Notes under the pieces: generated by a model
Seen by the model: the letters and a program-made list of their open reading frames with translations, nothing else
What the model was told of the DNA's origin: nothing
The model's database searches: none
Source: Pseudomonadota bacterium
Lineage (GTDB): Bacteria > Chloroflexota > UBA5177
Assembly (NCBI GenBank): GCA_021324655.1
Contig: JAJPIP010000035.1
Span: 86,121-150,120 of the forward strand
Reading direction: 5' to 3'
Length of the DNA: 64,000 bases
Shown: positions 9,208 through 17,071 of the stretch, piece by piece
Numbering within the stretch: the first letter of the stretch is position 1
Layout: the number at the start of each line of letters is the position of its first letter
Made by a program: the position numbers and the translations under genes

Positions 9208-10077
9208 TTATTGGGCAGCGCCAGCCGGTGCGCTCGTGAGGCGCTCGATGCGAGCGTGCTCGGCGAGGGCGGCCTCGAGAGCGGCGATCCCGGCCCGCGA
9301 CTCGGCCAGCCCGGGCATGGCGACCGTGAGACGCTGGAAGAGGAGTCCGGGCCAGAGCAACGGGCGCAACCGGTTCTGTCCCCACATCACCATTTCGAAG
9401 GCGATGCAGAGGGCCGGGAGCGGCACGGCGACCGTGATGACATAGCCGGCATAACCGGAGATCACCGAGCCCAGGACCATGCCGGGCACCATGAGGAGCA
9501 TGGCCAGCATGGCCAGATTGGTGCCGCAACGCGGATGATACAGCGTGCGTTTCCGTGTGTTCTCAACGGTGAGTGGCATGCCCGCCTCGTAGGCGGCGAT
9601 CGCCTGGTGCTCACCCCCGTGGAAGCGCCAGATGCGTCCGAACCGGGGCAGGGCGCGCGTCACGCCGATGAGACTGAAAAAGAGAAGAAGCTGCAGAATG
9701 GACGAGCCGGCCGCGTGCCAGACAGCGGGCAGCGTGGCAAACACGCCGTTGGCCAGCGTGGACAGGATGCCGATACAAATGATGGCTGCCAGCAGTGGCA
9801 GCGGGATCCGCTTGCCCCGGCTGGGCTTCCAGCCGCGCACCACGAGGCCCATCTGACTGACGAGCTTGGGAACGATCCGGATAAAGGGGAGCCGCTCCAC
9901 GGGGTGAGACTTGCGGGGCGGCAGCGGGAACGATTCGATGGTGAGAGTGCCGTCGGCAGATTCGCGGGCAATGGCAGCAGCCAGTGGCGTGAGCATCATC
10001 ACGCCATCCGGGAGCGCGGAGCCACCGACACGGATCGGGGTGGGGGATGCCTGTGTCATGATGCCGTAAGTTACCAT
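9208..10077 (-). CDS. DUF1385 (YqhQ-like) membrane-associated protein
   Basis: N-terminal IRVGGSALPDGVMMLT and central WRFHGGEHQAIAAYE fit the DUF1385 family. Start at the internal ATG (MVTYGIM), which has a GGGAG RBS. Confidence 0.65.
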   Translation of the reverse strand: MVTYGIMTQASPTPIRVGGSALPDGVMMLTPLAAAIARESADGTLTIESFPLPPRKSHPVERLPFIRIVPKLVSQMGLVVRGWKPSRGKRIPLPLLAAIICIGILSTLANGVFATLPAVWHAAGSSILQLLLFFSLIGVTRALPRFGRIWRFHGGEHQAIAAYEAGMPLTVENTRKRTLYHPRCGTNLAMLAMLLMVPGMVLGSVISGYAGYVITVAVPLPALCIAFEMVMWGQNRLRPLLWPGLLFQRLTVAMPGLAESRAGIAALEAALAEHARIERLTSAPAGAAQ

Positions 10078-10195
10078 GCACCACTCCCTGTGTCCATGGT
10101 TCAAAAGGGGAAGAAATGGGGACCGATCAACGCGCGCCCGGTAGCCGTTTCCCTGTTCATTGGTAGATGATAGGGGCACACAGGAAGGGGCGAGG

Positions 10196-11113
10196 ATGAC
10201 CGACACACTGCCTGATGTGGCGATCCCTCATCTCCGTGACTATATCGAGGAACAGCGCCGGGGGAAGGGTGAAGAGGACGCGCCGCCCTATGCTCACCCC
10301 GTCGATCAGTGGATCTTGCGTACCCTCAACAGCTTACCGGTGCGCACCGTCCTCGACCGCGCCATCGACGCCTACATCAGTACCCAGATGGGCACTGAGC
10401 TCGCCTCCGGCATCCCGATCGACGGCAAATCCTTTCCCGACCTCTACCAGGTGCTGACCAAGTGCACCGAGACGCTCAACATCCCCATTCCGCACGTCTA
10501 TGCCATGAACAGTCCTTACCTGTTCAACGCGTTCACTGCCGGCACCGACGAGTACGCCTTTATCGGCATCACGGCCGGCCTCACCGAGTTTTTCGACCCG
10601 GGCGAAGCATGCTTTGTCATCGGCCACGAGTGCGGGCATATCGCCGCGCGGCACATGAAATACCACACCCTGGTCATGATCCTGGCGGGGACCCTGCCGC
10701 GGTTCCTCGGGCCGCTGGGCGCGCTCCTGAGCCGGACCGCGGAGGTGCCCCTGATGGCCTGGGAGCGACGCTCCGAGATCACCGCCGACCGTGCCGGCCT
10801 CCTTTGCTGTGGCGATCTGAAAACGGCGGAGCGCGCCCTGGTCCGCCTGGTCGCGGGATTCGCCGATGTCGACCGCGTCGATATCGATGACTATCTCGAG
10901 CGCGCCAAGGATCTCGAGTCGTATCACGGCCTCTCCGGCTGGCAGCAGCTCTTTCAGACGCACCCGCTCATCCCCAAGCGCATCGAGGCGATCCGCCTCT
11001 TTGCCCGCTCTGAGCTGTACTACGAGATCACGGGCCAGCCGCGTCCCACCGGGCTGGAACTCCTGACGCGCCCGGAGCTCGACAGGCGCATCAACGACAT
11101 TGTGAAGCCGTGA
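10196..11113 (+). CDS. M48-family zinc metallopeptidase (HtpX/Ste24-like, soluble form)
   Basis: HExxH motif (VIGHECGHIAARH) with the downstream glutamate ligand (EITADRAG). No obvious TM helices. RBS GAAGGGG before the ATG at 10196. The stop overlaps the GTG start of the next gene (GTGA). Confidence 0.75.
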   Translation: MTDTLPDVAIPHLRDYIEEQRRGKGEEDAPPYAHPVDQWILRTLNSLPVRTVLDRAIDAYISTQMGTELASGIPIDGKSFPDLYQVLTKCTETLNIPIPHVYAMNSPYLFNAFTAGTDEYAFIGITAGLTEFFDPGEACFVIGHECGHIAARHMKYHTLVMILAGTLPRFLGPLGALLSRTAEVPLMAWERRSEITADRAGLLCCGDLKTAERALVRLVAGFADVDRVDIDDYLERAKDLESYHGLSGWQQLFQTHPLIPKRIEAIRLFARSELYYEITGQPRPTGLELLTRPELDRRINDIVKP

Positions 11114-12837
11114 CGGACCAACCGCTCCCGGACATCGTCGAGCAGATCGCGGCGGTTGCAGCCGATCTGGACGACGAGCGGCTCGCCGGGTCGCTGGCCG
11201 TGCTGTCCGAGCAGCGGGCACGAGCCCAGGTGCAGATCCTCATCGCGGGGACGGCCGGGTCGGGACGCGCCGCCCTCGTCAACAGCCTGCTGGGCACCGA
11301 TCTCCTCCCCTCCTCGCCTATTCCCAAGGCGCCGGTTGGCCTGCAACTGCGCTACCACCCGGCGCTCACGGTCCAGCTGGTGGCTGCCGATGGCCGCCGG
11401 GCCATCCCGACAGCGGAGCTGCGAACCGCACTCGTCGATCCGCGCCTCCCTCAGCGCTACCAGTACGTCGAAATCGGCATGCCCGCCGAGATTCTTACCA
11501 TGGTCGACGTGCGGATCGAAGATCTACAGTCGTCCTATGCGCCCGAGGACTGGTCACATCTCGTGGCACGCAGCGACTTCGTCATCGTCGTCCTCAACGC
11601 CGGCGCCCTGCTCTCCCAGACGGAGCGTGACTTCTTGCGGGATCAGCTGGGGCCACGCGGGCTCCATCGTGCCGCCCTCGTCATCAATCAGATCGATCAA
11701 GTGCCGGAGGACGAGCGGGAGAGCATTCGTGCCGCGGTCCGCGCTTTCCTCGGACCCTTTGAGAGCCGGCCCGTCAGCATCGAAGCCGTCGCTCCCCAGC
11801 TTGCAACGGATACTCGTCACCCCCTGCGGATCCTCTTTGCCGACCTCGCCGCGAGCTCGCTCCGGCTGCGTGAGTCGGCCGTCCGAGACGCTGCAGCCGC
11901 CGCTCTGGACGAGATCGAGGCAGTCGCTGCCGGCTCGCTGGCTCTGGCGTCATTGGAGGTGGAGCAGGTGGAGCGGGCGCGCGCGGCCCTGGCGGAGCGA
12001 CAGGAATGGCTGCGAGGGCGGATCGAACGGGTGCAGCGGCGCGTTGACGCTCTCATCGGCACGGTTGTGCGGGAGCAGATGCACGAGGCGATTCGTGGGA
12101 GCGGTGAGGTCATCCGCCGTCTGCTACCGGAGGAAATCGCCGCCGTGGACGATCTGCAAGACGTGCGTCGCTATCTCCCCGGCTACCTCCAGAGTCTGTG
12201 GGAAGAGATCCTGGAGCGGCGCATGACGGCGATCAGGGCCTCCCTCGAGGACGAGGCGGGGCGCATCGAAGAGCTGATCGAAAGCGATCTGCGGGAGCTG
12301 GTGGAGGCCGTGGAGGGATCGCTTGGCGCGACCGCCGGCGCGTTCGGCGGACAGAACACCGCCCGCGTCTTCGTTATGCCCCGCCGCAGTCAAAGCCACG
12401 CGGAGAGTGTCGCGCGCGGCCTCAGCCTGCACGGCTTCGTCTGGCTCATCATTGCCACTTTTTTCCCCGTCAGCTTCATTCCCGGCCTCCTCACCCTCGG
12501 CGGCAGCCACCTCATCCGCCACTTCTATGCGCGAGACATCGAGGACGCCAACCGCAAGGCCCTCACCGAGGCCGCCCTGGCGGCGACACGCGACCTGGAG
12601 CGTGACATCCACACCGAGGTCGACCGGCAGTTCGGGGATCTCGCGGCCGACATGCACCGCGCCGTGGCGGACCGATATCAGGACGCGGTGCGTCGCCTGG
12701 AAGCGATGCTCGGTCAGGGGACGGCGGACCGCGCAGCGATGGAAGAGCGGCGGGAGAGGCTGACCCGACTCGTTGCAGAGACCATCCCTGCTCTGCGGCA
12801 GGAGATGGAAAGAGGGGAAAAGGCCGGAGCGGTATGA
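11110..12837 (+). CDS. Bacterial dynamin-like protein with degenerate GTPase motifs (DLP-1)
   Basis: 575 aa. DLP architecture: GTPase-like N-domain, long helical stalk, hydrophobic paddle near aa 430-460 (FVWLIIATFFPVSFIPGLLTLGG). G1 is GTAGSGRA (K to R, S/T to A) and there is no DxxG G3 motif. G4-like NQID is present. GTG start overlaps the M48 stop. Confidence 0.7.
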   Translation: MTDQPLPDIVEQIAAVAADLDDERLAGSLAVLSEQRARAQVQILIAGTAGSGRAALVNSLLGTDLLPSSPIPKAPVGLQLRYHPALTVQLVAADGRRAIPTAELRTALVDPRLPQRYQYVEIGMPAEILTMVDVRIEDLQSSYAPEDWSHLVARSDFVIVVLNAGALLSQTERDFLRDQLGPRGLHRAALVINQIDQVPEDERESIRAAVRAFLGPFESRPVSIEAVAPQLATDTRHPLRILFADLAASSLRLRESAVRDAAAAALDEIEAVAAGSLALASLEVEQVERARAALAERQEWLRGRIERVQRRVDALIGTVVREQMHEAIRGSGEVIRRLLPEEIAAVDDLQDVRRYLPGYLQSLWEEILERRMTAIRASLEDEAGRIEELIESDLRELVEAVEGSLGATAGAFGGQNTARVFVMPRRSQSHAESVARGLSLHGFVWLIIATFFPVSFIPGLLTLGGSHLIRHFYARDIEDANRKALTEAALAATRDLERDIHTEVDRQFGDLAADMHRAVADRYQDAVRRLEAMLGQGTADRAAMEERRERLTRLVAETIPALRQEMERGEKAGAV

Positions 12838-14873
12838 CGGAGGGATATGCCGGCGTCCGGCGCCGGACAGAAGAGATCGAGCGGATCCTGGAAAGCATGG
12901 CCGGCTTGATCGGGTCCGGCGAGGGCACTGCCCTCGGGACGCTAGGCCTGGCGGGGGACGCGGCGCACCTGCGTGCACGCGCCCGAGATCTGGAGCGCGG
13001 GCTCTTCACCATTGTCGTCGTCGGGGAGTTCAAAAGCGGGAAGAGCACGCTGCTAAACAGCATGCTGGGCAAGGGGACGCTGCCGGCGAAGGCGACCCCC
13101 TGCACCGCCATCATCACGGTGCTTGTCCACGGCACGAACGACCGCGTCGCCGTGTACGAGGTCGACCGGGAGGAGCCACGCTTTCTCGACTGGGAACAGT
13201 TCGTTCGCGAGTTCCAGCTCTCGCTGCAGGATCAGGAGACGCTGCAGGAAGGGCGGGCCCTTGACCGCTTCGCACGTGTCCAGTACGCCGAGATCGAAAG
13301 CACGCATCGCCTCTGCGACGATGGCGTGCGGCTGGTCGATTCGCCCGGCCTCGGCGAGCATCTCAGCCGCACGCGCGTGACGACCGGCTATCTCCGCCAG
13401 GCCCAGGCGGTGATCGTCGTCCTCAACGCCACCCGGATCCTGGGGCAGGCGGAGCGCGAATTCATCGAGAACGAGCTGGGACGAGGACGGCTCGAGAACG
13501 TCTTCTTCGTCGTCAACCGGATGGATCAGATCAATCTCGCCGACGCCGCCGGCATTCGGCACTGGGTCGAATCCAACCTGGCGTCGCATTTCATGGACGA
13601 TGACGGCCGGTTCGATCGTGACCTGTACGAGCGGCGGGTCTTTTTTGTCTCCGCCCGTCAGGCTCTGACGGCGCGGACCGATGCGGTCGATCAAGACCTG
13701 CTGGCGGCATCCGGCGTACCGGCCCTCGAAGAGGCACTCGAACGTTTTCTCACGAGCGGCGACAGGGCGACGGCGATGCTCCGCTCGGCCGTCGCGGTCG
13801 TCGAGCCGGTTCTGGCCCGGGCGGAGCATCATATTGAGCAGCGCAGGGCGGCCCTCGACCGCCCGATTGCAGAACTCGAGCAACGGCGGGGGGAGGCGGA
13901 GAGCCGGCTGGAAGGGCTGCAGCGACGCAAGACGGAGATCGAGCGCACCGTCTTCCTCTTCGGTGAGGTCGTGCAGCGCAAGATCTACAGTGACCTCCGT
14001 GCCTTCATCGAGGGAATGCGCGAGGCCTGGGACGAGGATTCGCGCCGGCTCATGGATCTGGACGACGCCGTCTCTTTCAAGAACTTGCTGGCCTCCTATA
14101 CACAAGCCGGGGCGAAGGAGCGGATGGCAGCGGCGATCGGCGAGCAAGTCCAGCACTACCTTCAGGCGAAGTTCGGGTGGTGGGTCGAGCGGGTGCCGGC
14201 GGTGGTAGAGGGCGACCTGCGCCTGATGATGGCGGAGGTCGAGGCACAGATCGAAGAGTTCGAATTGGCACTCGACGAGATAGCGGCGGCCTTCTCCGGG
14301 GCCGCGCCGCGCCGGCGCACGCCCACCGATCCCTCTGCCAATCTGGCCGACCTCGCCCTCACCATGCAAGATATCCACGGCATCACCGAGGGCATGCTGT
14401 TCCCCTCTGACTGGGCCGACGTGATCGGCACCATGGCCCAGCAGGCAATCGCTGTCTTCCTGGTCGGCACCTTCCTCACCGGCGGCAATTTCCTGATCGC
14501 GATTCTCGCTGTCGAGGCGTTCCATTTCGGCATGCACGAGCACGAGGCCAAGAAAAAGGTGCGCCAGGAACTGGGCGAGCGGCTGCAGCAGGGACTGCGC
14601 GATCAGGTCGAGGAGAAGCGTCCCTTTATTGAGGAGTTGATCGGACAGCGCTTCCGTGCTCTGGCCCTGGCGGTGACCGAAGCGATACAGCGCCAGATCG
14701 AGGAGGTCCGCGCCGAGCAAGAGCGCATCCTCCGGCAGAAACGTGATGAAAACTTCTCAGTCGGCGTGGAGCACAAGCGTCTCTGCACCATCGAGGACCG
14801 ACTGCACACGCTGAACGACGAGCTGTGCACCGCCGTCCAGGCGCCGCCGTCAGAGCATCGAGCCAGGTGGTGA
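12834..14873 (+). CDS. Bacterial dynamin-like GTPase (DLP-2, canonical motifs)
   Basis: 679 aa. G1 GEFKSGKST, G3 DSPGLGE, G4 VVNRMDQ. Helical stalk and paddle hairpin (AIAVFLVGTFLTGGNFLIAILAVEAF). ATGA overlap with DLP-1. Confidence 0.85.
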   Translation: MTEGYAGVRRRTEEIERILESMAGLIGSGEGTALGTLGLAGDAAHLRARARDLERGLFTIVVVGEFKSGKSTLLNSMLGKGTLPAKATPCTAIITVLVHGTNDRVAVYEVDREEPRFLDWEQFVREFQLSLQDQETLQEGRALDRFARVQYAEIESTHRLCDDGVRLVDSPGLGEHLSRTRVTTGYLRQAQAVIVVLNATRILGQAEREFIENELGRGRLENVFFVVNRMDQINLADAAGIRHWVESNLASHFMDDDGRFDRDLYERRVFFVSARQALTARTDAVDQDLLAASGVPALEEALERFLTSGDRATAMLRSAVAVVEPVLARAEHHIEQRRAALDRPIAELEQRRGEAESRLEGLQRRKTEIERTVFLFGEVVQRKIYSDLRAFIEGMREAWDEDSRRLMDLDDAVSFKNLLASYTQAGAKERMAAAIGEQVQHYLQAKFGWWVERVPAVVEGDLRLMMAEVEAQIEEFELALDEIAAAFSGAAPRRRTPTDPSANLADLALTMQDIHGITEGMLFPSDWADVIGTMAQQAIAVFLVGTFLTGGNFLIAILAVEAFHFGMHEHEAKKKVRQELGERLQQGLRDQVEEKRPFIEELIGQRFRALALAVTEAIQRQIEEVRAEQERILRQKRDENFSVGVEHKRLCTIEDRLHTLNDELCTAVQAPPSEHRARW

Positions 14874-14976
14874 CGGTGAACAAACGGCGCTCGGACACGG
14901 GGAAATATCCTGTCCTTCCGGAGTCCGCCACAGGCGGCTGGTCCGAGGCAAGCGCGATGGGTTGCAGCGTGCGTGC

Positions 14977-16422
14977 TCACGCATGCTCGACCTCGCGCAT
15001 CACGTCGTCTACGCGGCGCGTCAAATCGTCAGTCCACTCCTCGATCGCGCTCATGTCATGCATCCTTTGCCGAAGTTCATCGAGACGTGGCTGCCGGCGT
15101 GTCCAGCCGGCATAGTAGGCGTCGGCCTCCTGCAGGAGCGCATCCAACCGGTCAAAGTACTGCGCTGTCTCGAGATGCAGAGCATCCAGTAGGCGGCGTC
15201 CGGTGGCCTCCACGCGCCGCAGGAGGTCGGCTTCCACGTCCGTCTGGAAGACGTTGCGGGCGACCCAGCGGCCGAGCGTCGCGCCTCCCTCCGCCACTCG
15301 CTCATCCCCGAGAGCCTGCCCCACCATCTGACCGAGGGTCGAGCCGGTGTGGGCCGCCGGATGGGTGACGGCAATCTGGTCCGGGCGAATGATCCAGGTG
15401 GTGAGGTCGAAGGGAGGCAAAGTCACCGGCAGATCGGCCGCCATGTCGCGGACATCGTCGCTGACGGCCGCGCCGTATCGTTTGACCAGAACACCCCACG
15501 GAACCGCACCTCCTCCGGCGCGCAGTATCCGGTGCGCCTCCTCACGCGCGCTCGCCAGGAACGCATCGTCATGCGTCCGGAGGTCTGACGCCGGCCCACG
15601 TAGCCGCGTTCGTCCCGTTGCCAGTTGGGAACGCATCTGTGCGCGGTACTCCTCGATCCGTCCCGCCTCCTCCGCTTCCGCCTGAGCCACCTGGCGCCGC
15701 TCCTGCGTGATCTCACCTGCCAGCGCTTGCCGGGAGAGGGAGAGAGCGGAGTGGAGGCAGGCGAGCCGTGACAGAAGGGGGAGGCGATCGCTGCCGAGGA
15801 GTCCAAGCAGCCACGGCACGAACCAGCCCAGGTCCCCGTGGTCGGGCGCCGCCGACACGGCGAAAAGCCGGGGGCGCCCCACCAGCTCATTCCCCATCCC
15901 CTCCAGCGCCGCTCGCGCCCAGGTGAGGACCTCGTCGCGTTCACCCTCATCAATCATGTCTATCCGGTTGACCACGAAGATGAGATTGCCCCGCAGCATC
16001 TCATTCACCTGCCGTGCCATCTCGCGCTCCGCTCCCGAGAGGATCTGATCGGCACTCAACACCATGACCGCCAGGTCGGCACGGCCAATCTCCGCCAGGA
16101 CGCGTTCCGTGGCGGCCGGATCCTGAAAGAGCCCGGGCGTGTCGACGGCGATCCAGCCGGACCTTGGATCAAGCGGAACCGTCTCGACGGCAGGCGAAAA
16201 CCCCACGGCGCGCTCCGGCAGAACCGACGTGCCGATCAGCCGATTGATCAGAGATGACTTCCCGGTCTTGAAGTTTCCGAAGACCACCAGGCGCCGTTCG
16301 CGGCGATCAAGATTTTCCAGTTGATCGAGGACATCGCGCAGCGCCGCTCGATCCGCCATCCCGGCCGGCGGCTCCGGTTCGCGTAGGGCACGGGCACGAG
16401 ACCACATATCAGTGAGCGGCAT
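14977..16422 (-). CDS. Bacterial dynamin-like GTPase (DLP-3)
   Basis: G1 GNFKTGKSS, G3 VDTPGLF, G4 VVNRIDM. Start set at the internal ATG (MPLTDMW, 482 aa). Convergent with DLP-2. Confidence 0.8.
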   Translation of the reverse strand: MPLTDMWSRARALREPEPPAGMADRAALRDVLDQLENLDRRERRLVVFGNFKTGKSSLINRLIGTSVLPERAVGFSPAVETVPLDPRSGWIAVDTPGLFQDPAATERVLAEIGRADLAVMVLSADQILSGAEREMARQVNEMLRGNLIFVVNRIDMIDEGERDEVLTWARAALEGMGNELVGRPRLFAVSAAPDHGDLGWFVPWLLGLLGSDRLPLLSRLACLHSALSLSRQALAGEITQERRQVAQAEAEEAGRIEEYRAQMRSQLATGRTRLRGPASDLRTHDDAFLASAREEAHRILRAGGGAVPWGVLVKRYGAAVSDDVRDMAADLPVTLPPFDLTTWIIRPDQIAVTHPAAHTGSTLGQMVGQALGDERVAEGGATLGRWVARNVFQTDVEADLLRRVEATGRRLLDALHLETAQYFDRLDALLQEADAYYAGWTRRQPRLDELRQRMHDMSAIEEWTDDLTRRVDDVMREVEHA

Positions 16423-16507
16423 GAGAAGCGTCGACCGCTGTTTCCCCGAAAATATAGACTTCGGGGGTGCTGTCGAACATTCTTGACGGACGCTCCCGAT
16501 CCCAGCC

Positions 16508-17071
16508 GTGAGGCTCGTCCTTACCTGGCGATCGCCTCCCTCCGCATCATGCGCTAGGTGGAGTTCAACGCCCGAGACCTCCTCGGCGGAGGGACCGGCC
16601 AACGCCACGGTGGATCACTACGAGGCTGCCGTCGTCGGCCGGCCCGGAGACTCATCCTGGTACGCCTTCGATCGTGCCCGATATCGTCTCCTCCGGTACG
16701 ACATATTTCCGCGGCGGCTCATCCGGTATGCGCTCTGTCCTCCCGACACGCTGAGAGAGGGCGCGACGATCGTGCAAAGGATTGTGCTGGGACCGGTAAG
16801 TGTGGAGATGGCGGTCCGCGTCATCGACGTCTGGGATCGGGAGGAAGGGAACGTCCGTGAGGTAGGTTTCACGTATGCAACCCTTGTCGGTCATGCGGAG
16901 TGTGGCGTCGCGACCTTCAGGGTCCGGCGGGATCAAGATCAGGGTGTGAGGATCCTGATCGATGTGCGATCTCGGCCCGGCACTCGCCTGACCCATCTGG
17001 CACGCCCCGTGAGTCGGCTATTTCAGCGGGCTATCACACGTGCTGCGCTACGTCGCCTGGCTCGCTCCTGA
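16508..17071 (+). CDS. DUF1990-like protein
   Basis: GFTYATLVGHAECGVATFRV resembles the conserved DUF1990 core (GFAYGTLPGHPE-G-E). Start uncertain. Confidence 0.45.
   Translation: MRLVLTWRSPPSASCARWSSTPETSSAEGPANATVDHYEAAVVGRPGDSSWYAFDRARYRLLRYDIFPRRLIRYALCPPDTLREGATIVQRIVLGPVSVEMAVRVIDVWDREEGNVREVGFTYATLVGHAECGVATFRVRRDQDQGVRILIDVRSRPGTRLTHLARPVSRLFQRAITRAALRRLARS

Follow-up and report, generated by a model that had tools for sequence, protein, structure and literature searches.

Genes for bacterial dynamin-like proteins (BDLPs) mostly occur in pairs, and the reason for this is still unclear. The only pair to have been dissected is Cj-DLP1/Cj-DLP2 of Campylobacter jejuni (PDB 5OWV/5OXF), which assembles heterotypically, tethers membranes and needs both of its active sites (PMC6104087). 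Here we describe a locus from a Chloroflexota genome, analysed as a window of 64,000 nucleotides (positions 86,121 to 150,120 of contig JAJPIP010000035.1, assembly GCA_021324655.1), in which an M48-family zinc metallopeptidase gene (M48) is followed by genes for two dynamin-like proteins (DLPs), DLP-1 and DLP-2, and, on the opposite strand, by a third, DLP-3. We consider it likely that DLP-1 is a BDLP-family pseudo-GTPase, fixed as such long ago, and that it serves as the non-catalytic subunit of a module made up of M48, DLP-1, DLP-2 and usually DLP-3.

The locus resembles that of Cj-DLP1/Cj-DLP2 in that two genes for proteins with the BDLP fold lie adjacent in one operon together with the gene for an accessory enzyme. 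In C. jejuni, however, both P-loops are canonical and both are required for turnover, whereas DLP-1 appears to be naturally dead. The accessory gene also differs, encoding an M48 protease here and an HcpA-like beta-lactamase there, and a third DLP is usual here. A second point of reference is DynA of Bacillus subtilis, whose D1 half binds and tethers membranes without GTP hydrolysis (PMC12998192). The two halves have the order of the genes here: in the NCBIfam model of DynA, DLP-1 falls on D1 and DLP-2 on D2, with a score of 29 bits that is far below the equivalog cutoff of 1600 bits. Unlike the proteins described here, DynA is a single polypeptide with a lysine in both P-loops, and a linked protease gene is not mentioned in the literature consulted here. 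The best whole-length structural matches, covering G domain, neck, trunk and paddle, are BDLP1 of Nostoc punctiforme (2J68/2J69) and IniA of Mycobacterium (6J72). In contrast to DLP-1, with which they share 15 to 17% identity, both are active GTPases with canonical G1 to G4 motifs.

The nearest described thing to DLP-1 is Mmc1 of fungal mitochondria, a pseudoenzyme resembling dynamin-related proteins and BDLPs that has been proposed to act as a self-assembling membrane scaffold (bioRxiv 10.1101/2023.10.03.560745). Both have a dynamin/BDLP-like fold in which motifs for GTP binding and hydrolysis have been lost. Mmc1 differs in being eukaryotic, anchored by transmembrane helices, devoid of all the motifs and not encoded in an operon with an active dynamin, whereas DLP-1 keeps G-x4-G-R and NxxD. 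Pairs with one inactive GTPase occur elsewhere in eukaryotes: the IRGM (GMS) regulators of GKS IRGs, the SEPT6-group septins, and the long and short forms of Mgm1/OPA1. In these, as is proposed for DLP-1, a non-hydrolysing paralog regulates or scaffolds the active one through G or stalk interfaces. They differ from DLP-1 in the parts of the active site that remain, and constitutive GTP binding is seen in some of them; the resemblance is a functional one, with no demonstrated homology of the arrangement. For LeoA of enterotoxigenic Escherichia coli, which is encoded beside other DLP genes, neither binding nor hydrolysis of nucleotide could be detected, and its hydrolysis residues are mostly conserved (PMC4159319, in which Mgm1 is also discussed). 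The inactivity of LeoA may reflect an absent partner rather than the loss of motifs.

A survey of cyanobacterial BDLPs identified proteins by their conserved dynamin-like GTPase domain and found GxxxxGK[S/T] in nearly all of them (PMC5827413). Because it relied on that domain, it probably missed the DLP-1 family, whose members carry the annotation "hypothetical" and are overlooked when dynamins are surveyed by their motifs. In the literature searched, which left out most subscription journals, neither a bacterial dynamin pseudo-GTPase nor an M48-dynamin operon was described. The gene link between M48 proteases and dynamins is general in bacteria and apparently undescribed, and it recalls the mitochondrial OMA1-OPA1 pair. 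The DLP-1 family may be regarded as a natural experiment in which one partner has probably long been catalytically dead and yet has been retained, selected and co-encoded with an active dynamin. It makes testable both the need for heterotypic dimerisation of G domains and the contribution of a non-hydrolysing subunit, and cultured hosts exist (Nostoc foliaceum FACHB-393, Fischerella muscicola PCC 73103 and, for a related module, Clostridium sp. DL1XJH146).

Fold and altered G motifs of DLP-1

DLP-1 is encoded on the + strand at positions 11110 to 12837 by an intact open reading frame (ORF) of 575 aa, which was also called by JGI and NCBI. The NCBI entry, from a Chloroflexota metagenome-assembled genome (MAG), reads "hypothetical protein VFB58_03730" (HZU11926.1), and independent assemblies carry the same protein. 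An AlphaFold2 model built from 34 homologs (predicted local distance difference test score [pLDDT], 84.6; predicted template modelling score, 0.70) showed a G domain followed by a helical neck and trunk. In full-length Foldseek comparisons, the best PDB folds were BDLP (2j69; E 1.6e-16), IniA (6j72; E 8.8e-16) and Cj-DLP2 (5owv_C), followed by mitofusins, Mx, EHD and OPA1. Alignment of the DLP-1 family with the DLP-2 family using hhalign gave a probability of 99.7% over 530 columns, with the same motif correspondences. These analyses place DLP-1 in the BDLP fold. Domain models respond far less clearly. Pfam Dynamin_N (PF00350) passes its cutoff of 27 bits only narrowly, at 27.8, covers residues 43 to 87 only and has no single stretch that passes; the precomputed Pfam annotation is empty for most DLP-1 orthologs, NCBIfam holds no model for DLP-1, and the best PDB sequence match is Cj-DLP2 (E 0.019).

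At the tip of the trunk, residues ~436 to 469 (GFVWLIIATFFPVSFIPGLLTLGG; positions 12415 to 12516, + strand) form a hydrophobic paddle with a Kyte-Doolittle maximum of 2.12, modelled by AlphaFold2 as a low-pLDDT loop between trunk helices. A hydrophobic segment of variable length is present at this place in all orthologs. A comparable paddle is found in DLP-2 (residues 529 to 566) and none in DLP-3.

The G domains of DLP-1, DLP-2, DLP-3 and orthologs from four other contigs were aligned with MAFFT. The initial annotation had read the Walker A motif of DLP-1 as GTAGSGRA, with the P-loop lysine replaced by arginine and the Ser/Thr by alanine. Direct reading of the DNA confirmed this: the codons at 11248 to 11271 (+ strand; GGG ACG GCC GGG TCG GGA CGC GCC) encode G47-T-A-G-S-G52-R53-A54. 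In place of the GxxxxGK[ST] of BDLPs, the G1 motif thus reads GxxxxGR[A/F/S] in DLP-1 and its orthologs, compared with GEFK[S/N]GKST in DLP-2 and GxFKTGKS[S/T] in DLP-3. The switch I equivalent, P72-K73-A74-P75 (11323 to 11334, + strand), is part of a PKAPV stretch that aligns with PCTAI of DLP-2, so that Ala74 takes the place of the invariant G2 threonine of DLP-2. This loss had not been named in the initial annotation. In the switch II equivalent, R135-I-E137-D-L (11512 to 11526, + strand), MAFFT pairs VDVRIEDLQS of DLP-1 with VRLVDSPGLGE of DLP-2 and VDTPGL of DLP-3, and hhalign introduces a longer gap. The absence of DxxG from the G3 position, already noted from the DNA, is borne out by both alignments, and the loop is shortened by 3 to 9 residues, the figure varying with the aligner. 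The string DQLG at residues 178 to 181 lies off the G3 position and is not conserved among orthologs. Of the four motifs, only G4 (N/TxxD) is retained, as N193-Q-I-D196 (11686 to 11697, + strand); the helical stalk and the paddle are likewise kept, as had been proposed. Judged by its sequence, DLP-1 lacks three of the four G motifs of the BDLP family and is best filed as a pseudo-GTPase with a BDLP fold. The earlier suggestion of a probable pseudo-GTPase is therefore supported, and the loss is deeper than the K-to-R and S-to-A replacements, since G2 and G3 are gone as well.

Word-indexed protein searches recovered only six proteins with DLP-1 as the query and five with a 34-sequence profile. 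The size of the family was first seen in an exhaustive hidden Markov model (HMM) search of 1.84 billion representatives, which gave 3819 matches, 74 of them below 1e-30. The best 150 of the 3819 were aligned to the profile with hmmalign, and the full-length sequences among them fell into three P-loop classes: 34 with GxxxxGR (GR-type), 36 with no recognisable P-loop and 37 with a canonical one. Position statistics were taken from 42 GR-type sequences that cover the P-loop, down to 21% identity. A canonical GxxxxGK[ST], which would have spoken against a fixed loss, was sought at this site and all 42 read GxxxxGR, with G47, G52 and R53 invariant. Of the two substitutions whose conservation in orthologs the initial annotation had proposed to check, the arginine is invariant; the alanine is not, position 54 being A in 15 sequences, F in 11, S in 10 and otherwise in the remainder, including C and H. 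Position 73 is basic in nearly all (K35/R5), position 74 is Ala in 24 and Thr in only 2 of 42, R135 is found in 30 of 41 and E137 in 36 of 40. DxxG is missing at G3 from every GR-type member that covers the site, and the G2 threonine from most. At G4, D196 is present in 37 of 37, and position 193 is N30/T5/S2. Conserved basic residues (R53, K73 and R135) stand at each former G-motif position. In the alignments, the elements that would hold Mg2+ and the gamma-phosphate are all replaced, and the replacements themselves (G-x4-G-R, PK(A)P and R-I-E) are conserved.

The family thus combines a retained fold with catalytic motifs whose loss is conserved in orthologs. Among 34 full-length members with 21 to 44% identity to DLP-1, seven columns are invariant, including G47, G52, R53 and the G4 aspartate. 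Across nine genomes, mean pairwise identity of DLP-1 was 46% in the G domain and 34% in the stalk, compared with 57% and 35% for DLP-2. We conclude from this conservation that purifying selection maintains the altered pocket of DLP-1.

The same data bear on the idea that the degenerate motifs arose by sequencing error, by a mutation confined to one strain or through the decay of a pseudogene, for which nothing speaks besides the oddity of the motif. A single-base error is excluded, because the CGC codon of R53 differs from the lysine codons AAA and AAG at all three positions, and three substitutions would be needed. The identical protein on independent assemblies, the unbroken ORF with orthologs of 570 to 597 aa, the presence of R53 in all 42 homologs across phyla and the conservation of the G domain above that of the stalk leave this explanation scarcely tenable, and comparison with orthologs refutes it.

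Hydrolysis of GTP by the canonical route is not expected of DLP-1, because it has lost the P-loop lysine, the Mg2+ ligands (S/T of the P-loop and Thr of G2) and, at G3, both the Asp and the Gly. It could instead be argued that DLP-1 is still an active NTPase in which Arg53, Lys73 and Arg135 replace the Lys/Mg2+ chemistry, or which uses another nucleotide. The invariant P-loop glycines, Arg53 and G4 aspartate, the basic residues kept at every former motif position and the high conservation of the G domain would all fit such an enzyme. No Mg2+ ligand is left to it, however, as the S/T site has become A, F, S, C, H or another residue, the G2 Thr is gone and there is no DxxG. Walker A K-to-R substitutions typically spare nucleotide binding and abolish hydrolysis. 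In addition, a sister clade without any P-loop, described below, occupies the same genomic slot, and the function of that slot therefore needs no catalysis. We regard an active DLP-1 as quite improbable.

Gene order and origin of the module

The M48 gene precedes DLP-1 on the + strand at 10196 to 11113 (305 aa in the JGI call; Pfam Peptidase_M48, E 2.6e-25); its longest ORF starts at 10160. The zinc site is complete, with HECGH at 10625 to 10639 and a downstream glutamate (E194), both invariant in 35 orthologs. An AlphaFold2 model (pLDDT 81) gave only weak fold matches to Ste24, HtpX and BepA, and no sequence relative was found in the PDB. M48 shows the highest conservation in the module, with 53% mean identity, and at E<=1e-10 its family counts at least 784 relatives. 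The M48 stop and the DLP-1 start overlap by 4 nt (GTGA, 11110 to 11113). The DLP-1 stop and the DLP-2 ATG overlap by 4 nt as well (ATGA, 12834 to 12837), so that the initial placement of DLP-2 4 nt downstream of DLP-1 was wrong. These overlaps, which join the three + strand genes, suggest that M48, DLP-1 and DLP-2 are translationally coupled. A promoter and terminator scan over 9800 to 17000 performed no better than on shuffled sequence.

The order M48, DLP-1, DLP-2 was found in the window and at the loci of four homologs, each with M48 directly upstream and a canonical DLP of ~700 aa directly downstream. A genome scan with a six-sequence DLP-1 alignment as the query yielded nine genome loci, and located the family in Chloroflexota, two Ktedonobacterales, a "proteobacterium" MAG and five cyanobacteria, including N. 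foliaceum FACHB-393 and F. muscicola PCC 73103. Eight of the nine loci have the order M48-DLP-1-DLP-2 as far as the contigs reach. The exception is a cyanobacterial locus (L011) that reads DLP-1-DLP-2-DLP-3, where only 396 nt are available upstream of DLP-1 and contain no M48 match. Wherever a GR-type DLP-1 has enough flanking DNA, a canonical DLP lies directly downstream. A DLP-3 ortholog adjoins DLP-2 at eight loci (L005, L011, L012, L016, L026, L029, L032 and L033); it follows DLP-2 directly in L005, L011, L012 and L016, and lies nearby on the opposite strand in the window, L002 and L009.

The scan was extended to metagenomes by pulling 80 loci with the M48 family and classifying the gene downstream. 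Where M48 is a close relative and the DNA is long enough, at 14 loci, a GR-type DLP-1 comes next in every case, then DLP-2, and then DLP-3 where the DNA allows. At 43 loci with a more distant M48 (33 to 40% identity), the next DLP is of the canonical GEFNHGKS type in 35 and eroded in 2; the other 6 have none within 900 nt, 3 of these having one slightly further away. Overall, a DLP lies directly downstream of M48 at no fewer than 51 of 57 metagenome loci, many of which show only one DLP in 8 kb. By gene order, DLP-1 can be described as the putatively dead member of a conserved module of M48, DLP-1, canonical DLP-2 and usually DLP-3. The synteny of DLP-1 and DLP-2 would fit a heterotypic pair that has become fixed with one of its partners dead, as the initial annotation had envisaged; that the pairing is obligate is something we infer.

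The position behind M48, hereafter slot 1, is not always held by a GR-type protein. Canonical slot-1 proteins were found at L019 (P0063; GQFSSGKS) and, in Armatimonadota, at L020 (P0070; GEFGVGKS/DTPG/NQID), and both outscore DLP-2 and DLP-3 against the DLP-1 profile. At L020, a longer locus, the canonical slot-1 protein is followed by a DLP-2-like gene. At the other extreme is the eroded sister clade, whose members (~550 to 590 aa, annotated as hypothetical) have no recognisable P-loop, with sequences such as GQPFSGLFDIL and GQPQQNLFGIL at its site (L017, L018, L021, L022 and L042/L043). At L017, the eroded DLP stands between M48 and a canonical DLP-2. Clostridium sp. DL1XJH146 (L021; P-loop site like SQPFNGL) and an Oscillospiraceae MAG (L022) have M48, the eroded DLP, DLP-2 and DLP-3. 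A Clostridia-type locus (L018) has no M48 directly upstream. In a neighbour-joining tree, the GR and eroded clades are sisters nested among canonical slot-1 proteins, with DLP-2 and DLP-3 outside. The canonical slot-1 relatives and the P-loop-less Clostridia clade together indicate that the module of protease and dynamin is older than the loss of catalysis, which took place within it, with the more distant canonical homologs as the putative ancestral state. The most economical course of events would be an ancestral M48-DLP module with an active GTPase, loss of slot-1 catalysis beside DLP-2 and DLP-3, and finally either the freezing of the pocket as G-x4-G-R or its complete loss.

The generality of the M48 link raises the question of whether the protease, rather than DLP-2, is the main partner of DLP-1. 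Slot-1 dynamins would then be membrane-bound adaptors, substrates or regulators of M48, and their catalysis would have become dispensable once DLP-2 and DLP-3 supplied GTPase activity. The adjacency at most metagenome loci, including those with a single DLP, agrees with this, as do the 14 of 14 close M48 orthologs with a GR-type DLP-1, the overlap of the M48 stop with the DLP-1 start and the position of M48 as the best conserved gene. A parallel is offered by mitochondria, where the dynamin OPA1 is cleaved by OMA1, a protease of the M48 family. Against this, M48 is not seen directly upstream at L011 and L018, neither an interaction nor a cleavage site is known, and two cyanobacteria still keep DLP-1 and DLP-2 beside an M48 that has lost the first His of HExxH. 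An M48-centred role is possible, if on balance doubtful, and it overlaps with a non-catalytic subunit in a dynamin module rather than excluding it. The two altered M48 proteins, CECGH or RECGH at this site, belong to Okeania sp. SIO3I5 (L004, 7054 to 7959) and N. foliaceum FACHB-393 (L014, 5995 to 6897); both also lack a nearby conserved His, and the protease may be inactive there.

A further proposal, that the module is an anti-phage "Dynamins" (LeoA/LeoBC) defence system with DLP-1 as its sensor or regulatory subunit, was assessed with PADLOC. DLP-2 and DLP-3 matched LeoA/LeoBC with E values of 1e-17 to 1e-18, although ~60 to 65 bits is weak for models of ~560 to 600 positions. DLP-1 reached only 17 bits against LeoA (E 6e-4), and M48 matched none of the PADLOC models. 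DynA protects B. subtilis from phage (PMC12998192), and genes suggestive of defence adjoin a few of the loci (one for an NB-ARC/SLFN protein at L020 and one for a PIN protein at L005). On the other hand, DLP-1, DLP-2 and DLP-3 had no match in PHROGs, the neighbouring genes vary between loci, and those in the window (epimerase, NUDIX, DUF1385, IF-1 and MarR) do not form a defence island. A defence function for the module seems unlikely on this evidence.

Proposed role of DLP-1

In the reading that we favour, DLP-1 is probably the non-catalytic component of machinery that remodels membranes. DLP-1 would be made together with M48 and DLP-2, as the overlaps of their genes suggest, and its paddle would insert into the cytoplasmic membrane. 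By analogy with Cj-DLP1/Cj-DLP2 or the fused D1-D2 halves of DynA, it would assemble with DLP-2. Without canonical GTP hydrolysis of its own, it could act as a scaffold, a tether or a regulatory partner at the G interface, with GTP turnover provided by DLP-2 and the soluble DLP-3. Since selection still acts on the G domain, what used to be the active site probably has a function even now; this could be either Mg2+-independent binding of a guanine nucleotide or docking of a partner. Nucleotide binding is possible in view of the retained G-x4-G-R, NxxD and basic cluster (R53/K73/R135), while the eroded sister clade argues that such binding is dispensable for the slot-1 role. More speculatively, given its adjacency and the OMA1-OPA1 analogy, M48 may process or turn over a component of the module.

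Several points weigh against this reading. Both the loss of hydrolysis by DLP-1 and its complex with DLP-2 are things that we infer. GTP turnover by Cj-DLP1/Cj-DLP2 is abolished when the P-loop of either protein carries a K-to-A mutation (PMC6104087). A pair of the DLP-1/DLP-2 type would on this precedent be expected to be inactive, unless DLP-2 pairs with itself or with DLP-3. Turnover here would therefore have to come from DLP-2 homodimers, from G-dimers of DLP-2 with DLP-3, or from a DLP-1/DLP-2 dimer that is asymmetric and has a single functional site. The invariant G-x4-G-R and G4 aspartate could mean that some nucleotide-dependent activity survives in DLP-1. The neighbour-joining tree carries no support values. 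Finally, DLP-3 is not in the available flanks of the Okeania (L004) and N. foliaceum (L014) loci, and it is therefore not an obligatory partner everywhere.

A more elaborate version would make M48 and the slot-1 dynamin an old bacterial counterpart of OMA1-OPA1 at the stressed membrane. In the clade of Chloroflexota and cyanobacteria, DLP-1 would have been turned into a non-hydrolysing nucleotide sensor or lock, whose basic pocket (R53, K73, R135 and the G4 aspartate) binds a guanine nucleotide without Mg2+ and whose asymmetric G-dimer gates turnover by DLP-2 and DLP-3. This would explain why the G4 aspartate is invariant in DLP-1 and yet is Asn in most DLP-2 orthologs. We offer it as a tentative idea that will probably prove wrong in this full form.

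Partner dynamins and neighbouring genes

DLP-2 is a canonical BDLP of 679 aa encoded at 12834 to 14873 on the + strand (Pfam Dynamin_N, 9.4e-24; Dynamin-like_hel_bact, 1.3e-20). Its motifs were thought from the outset to be perfect, and they are canonical for BDLPs: GEFKSGKS (13023 to 13046), T91, DSPG (13338 to 13349) and NRMD (13515 to 13526). The G4 motif of DLP-2 orthologs is NRxN in 7 of 10 (L004, L007, L009, L011, L012, L014 and L016), compared with NRMD in the window and an invariant Asp in DLP-1. In classical GTPases, a D-to-N exchange at this guanine-specifying aspartate shifts base specificity. At L010 (2556 to 4496, + strand), two separate DLP-2-like segments were observed, which could represent a duplication, a frameshift or an assembly problem.

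DLP-3 is a shorter, paddle-less, canonical dynamin-like GTPase, as judged from gene calls, Pfam and motifs. Its gene lies on the - strand (maximal ORF, 14977 to 16608), convergent to DLP-2 and 103 nt from the DLP-2 stop. The start is uncertain, being placed at 16359 by JGI and ~16422 by NCBI, which gives 460, 481 or 543 aa depending on the gene call. The motifs are GNFKTGKS (16290 to 16267), DTPG and NRID. At L036 (12811 to 15639, + strand), a DLP-3-like ORF of ~940 aa was found in which a regular expression detected no P-loop. The cyanobacterial "slr1306 family" domain model of NCBIfam (NF049994) gave weak partial matches to DLP-1 (E 4.8e-6) and DLP-3 (E 2.2e-6), far below its cutoff.

Upstream of the module, a DUF1385 membrane protein gene (9208 to 10206, - strand) is divergent from M48 and is not kept beside the module in the other loci examined. 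In four of the distant modules (L072, L073, L075 and L092), the second gene is an ORF of ~900 to 1000 aa that encodes a dynamin-like protein with the P-loop GEFNTGKS and an architecture unlike that of DLP-2.

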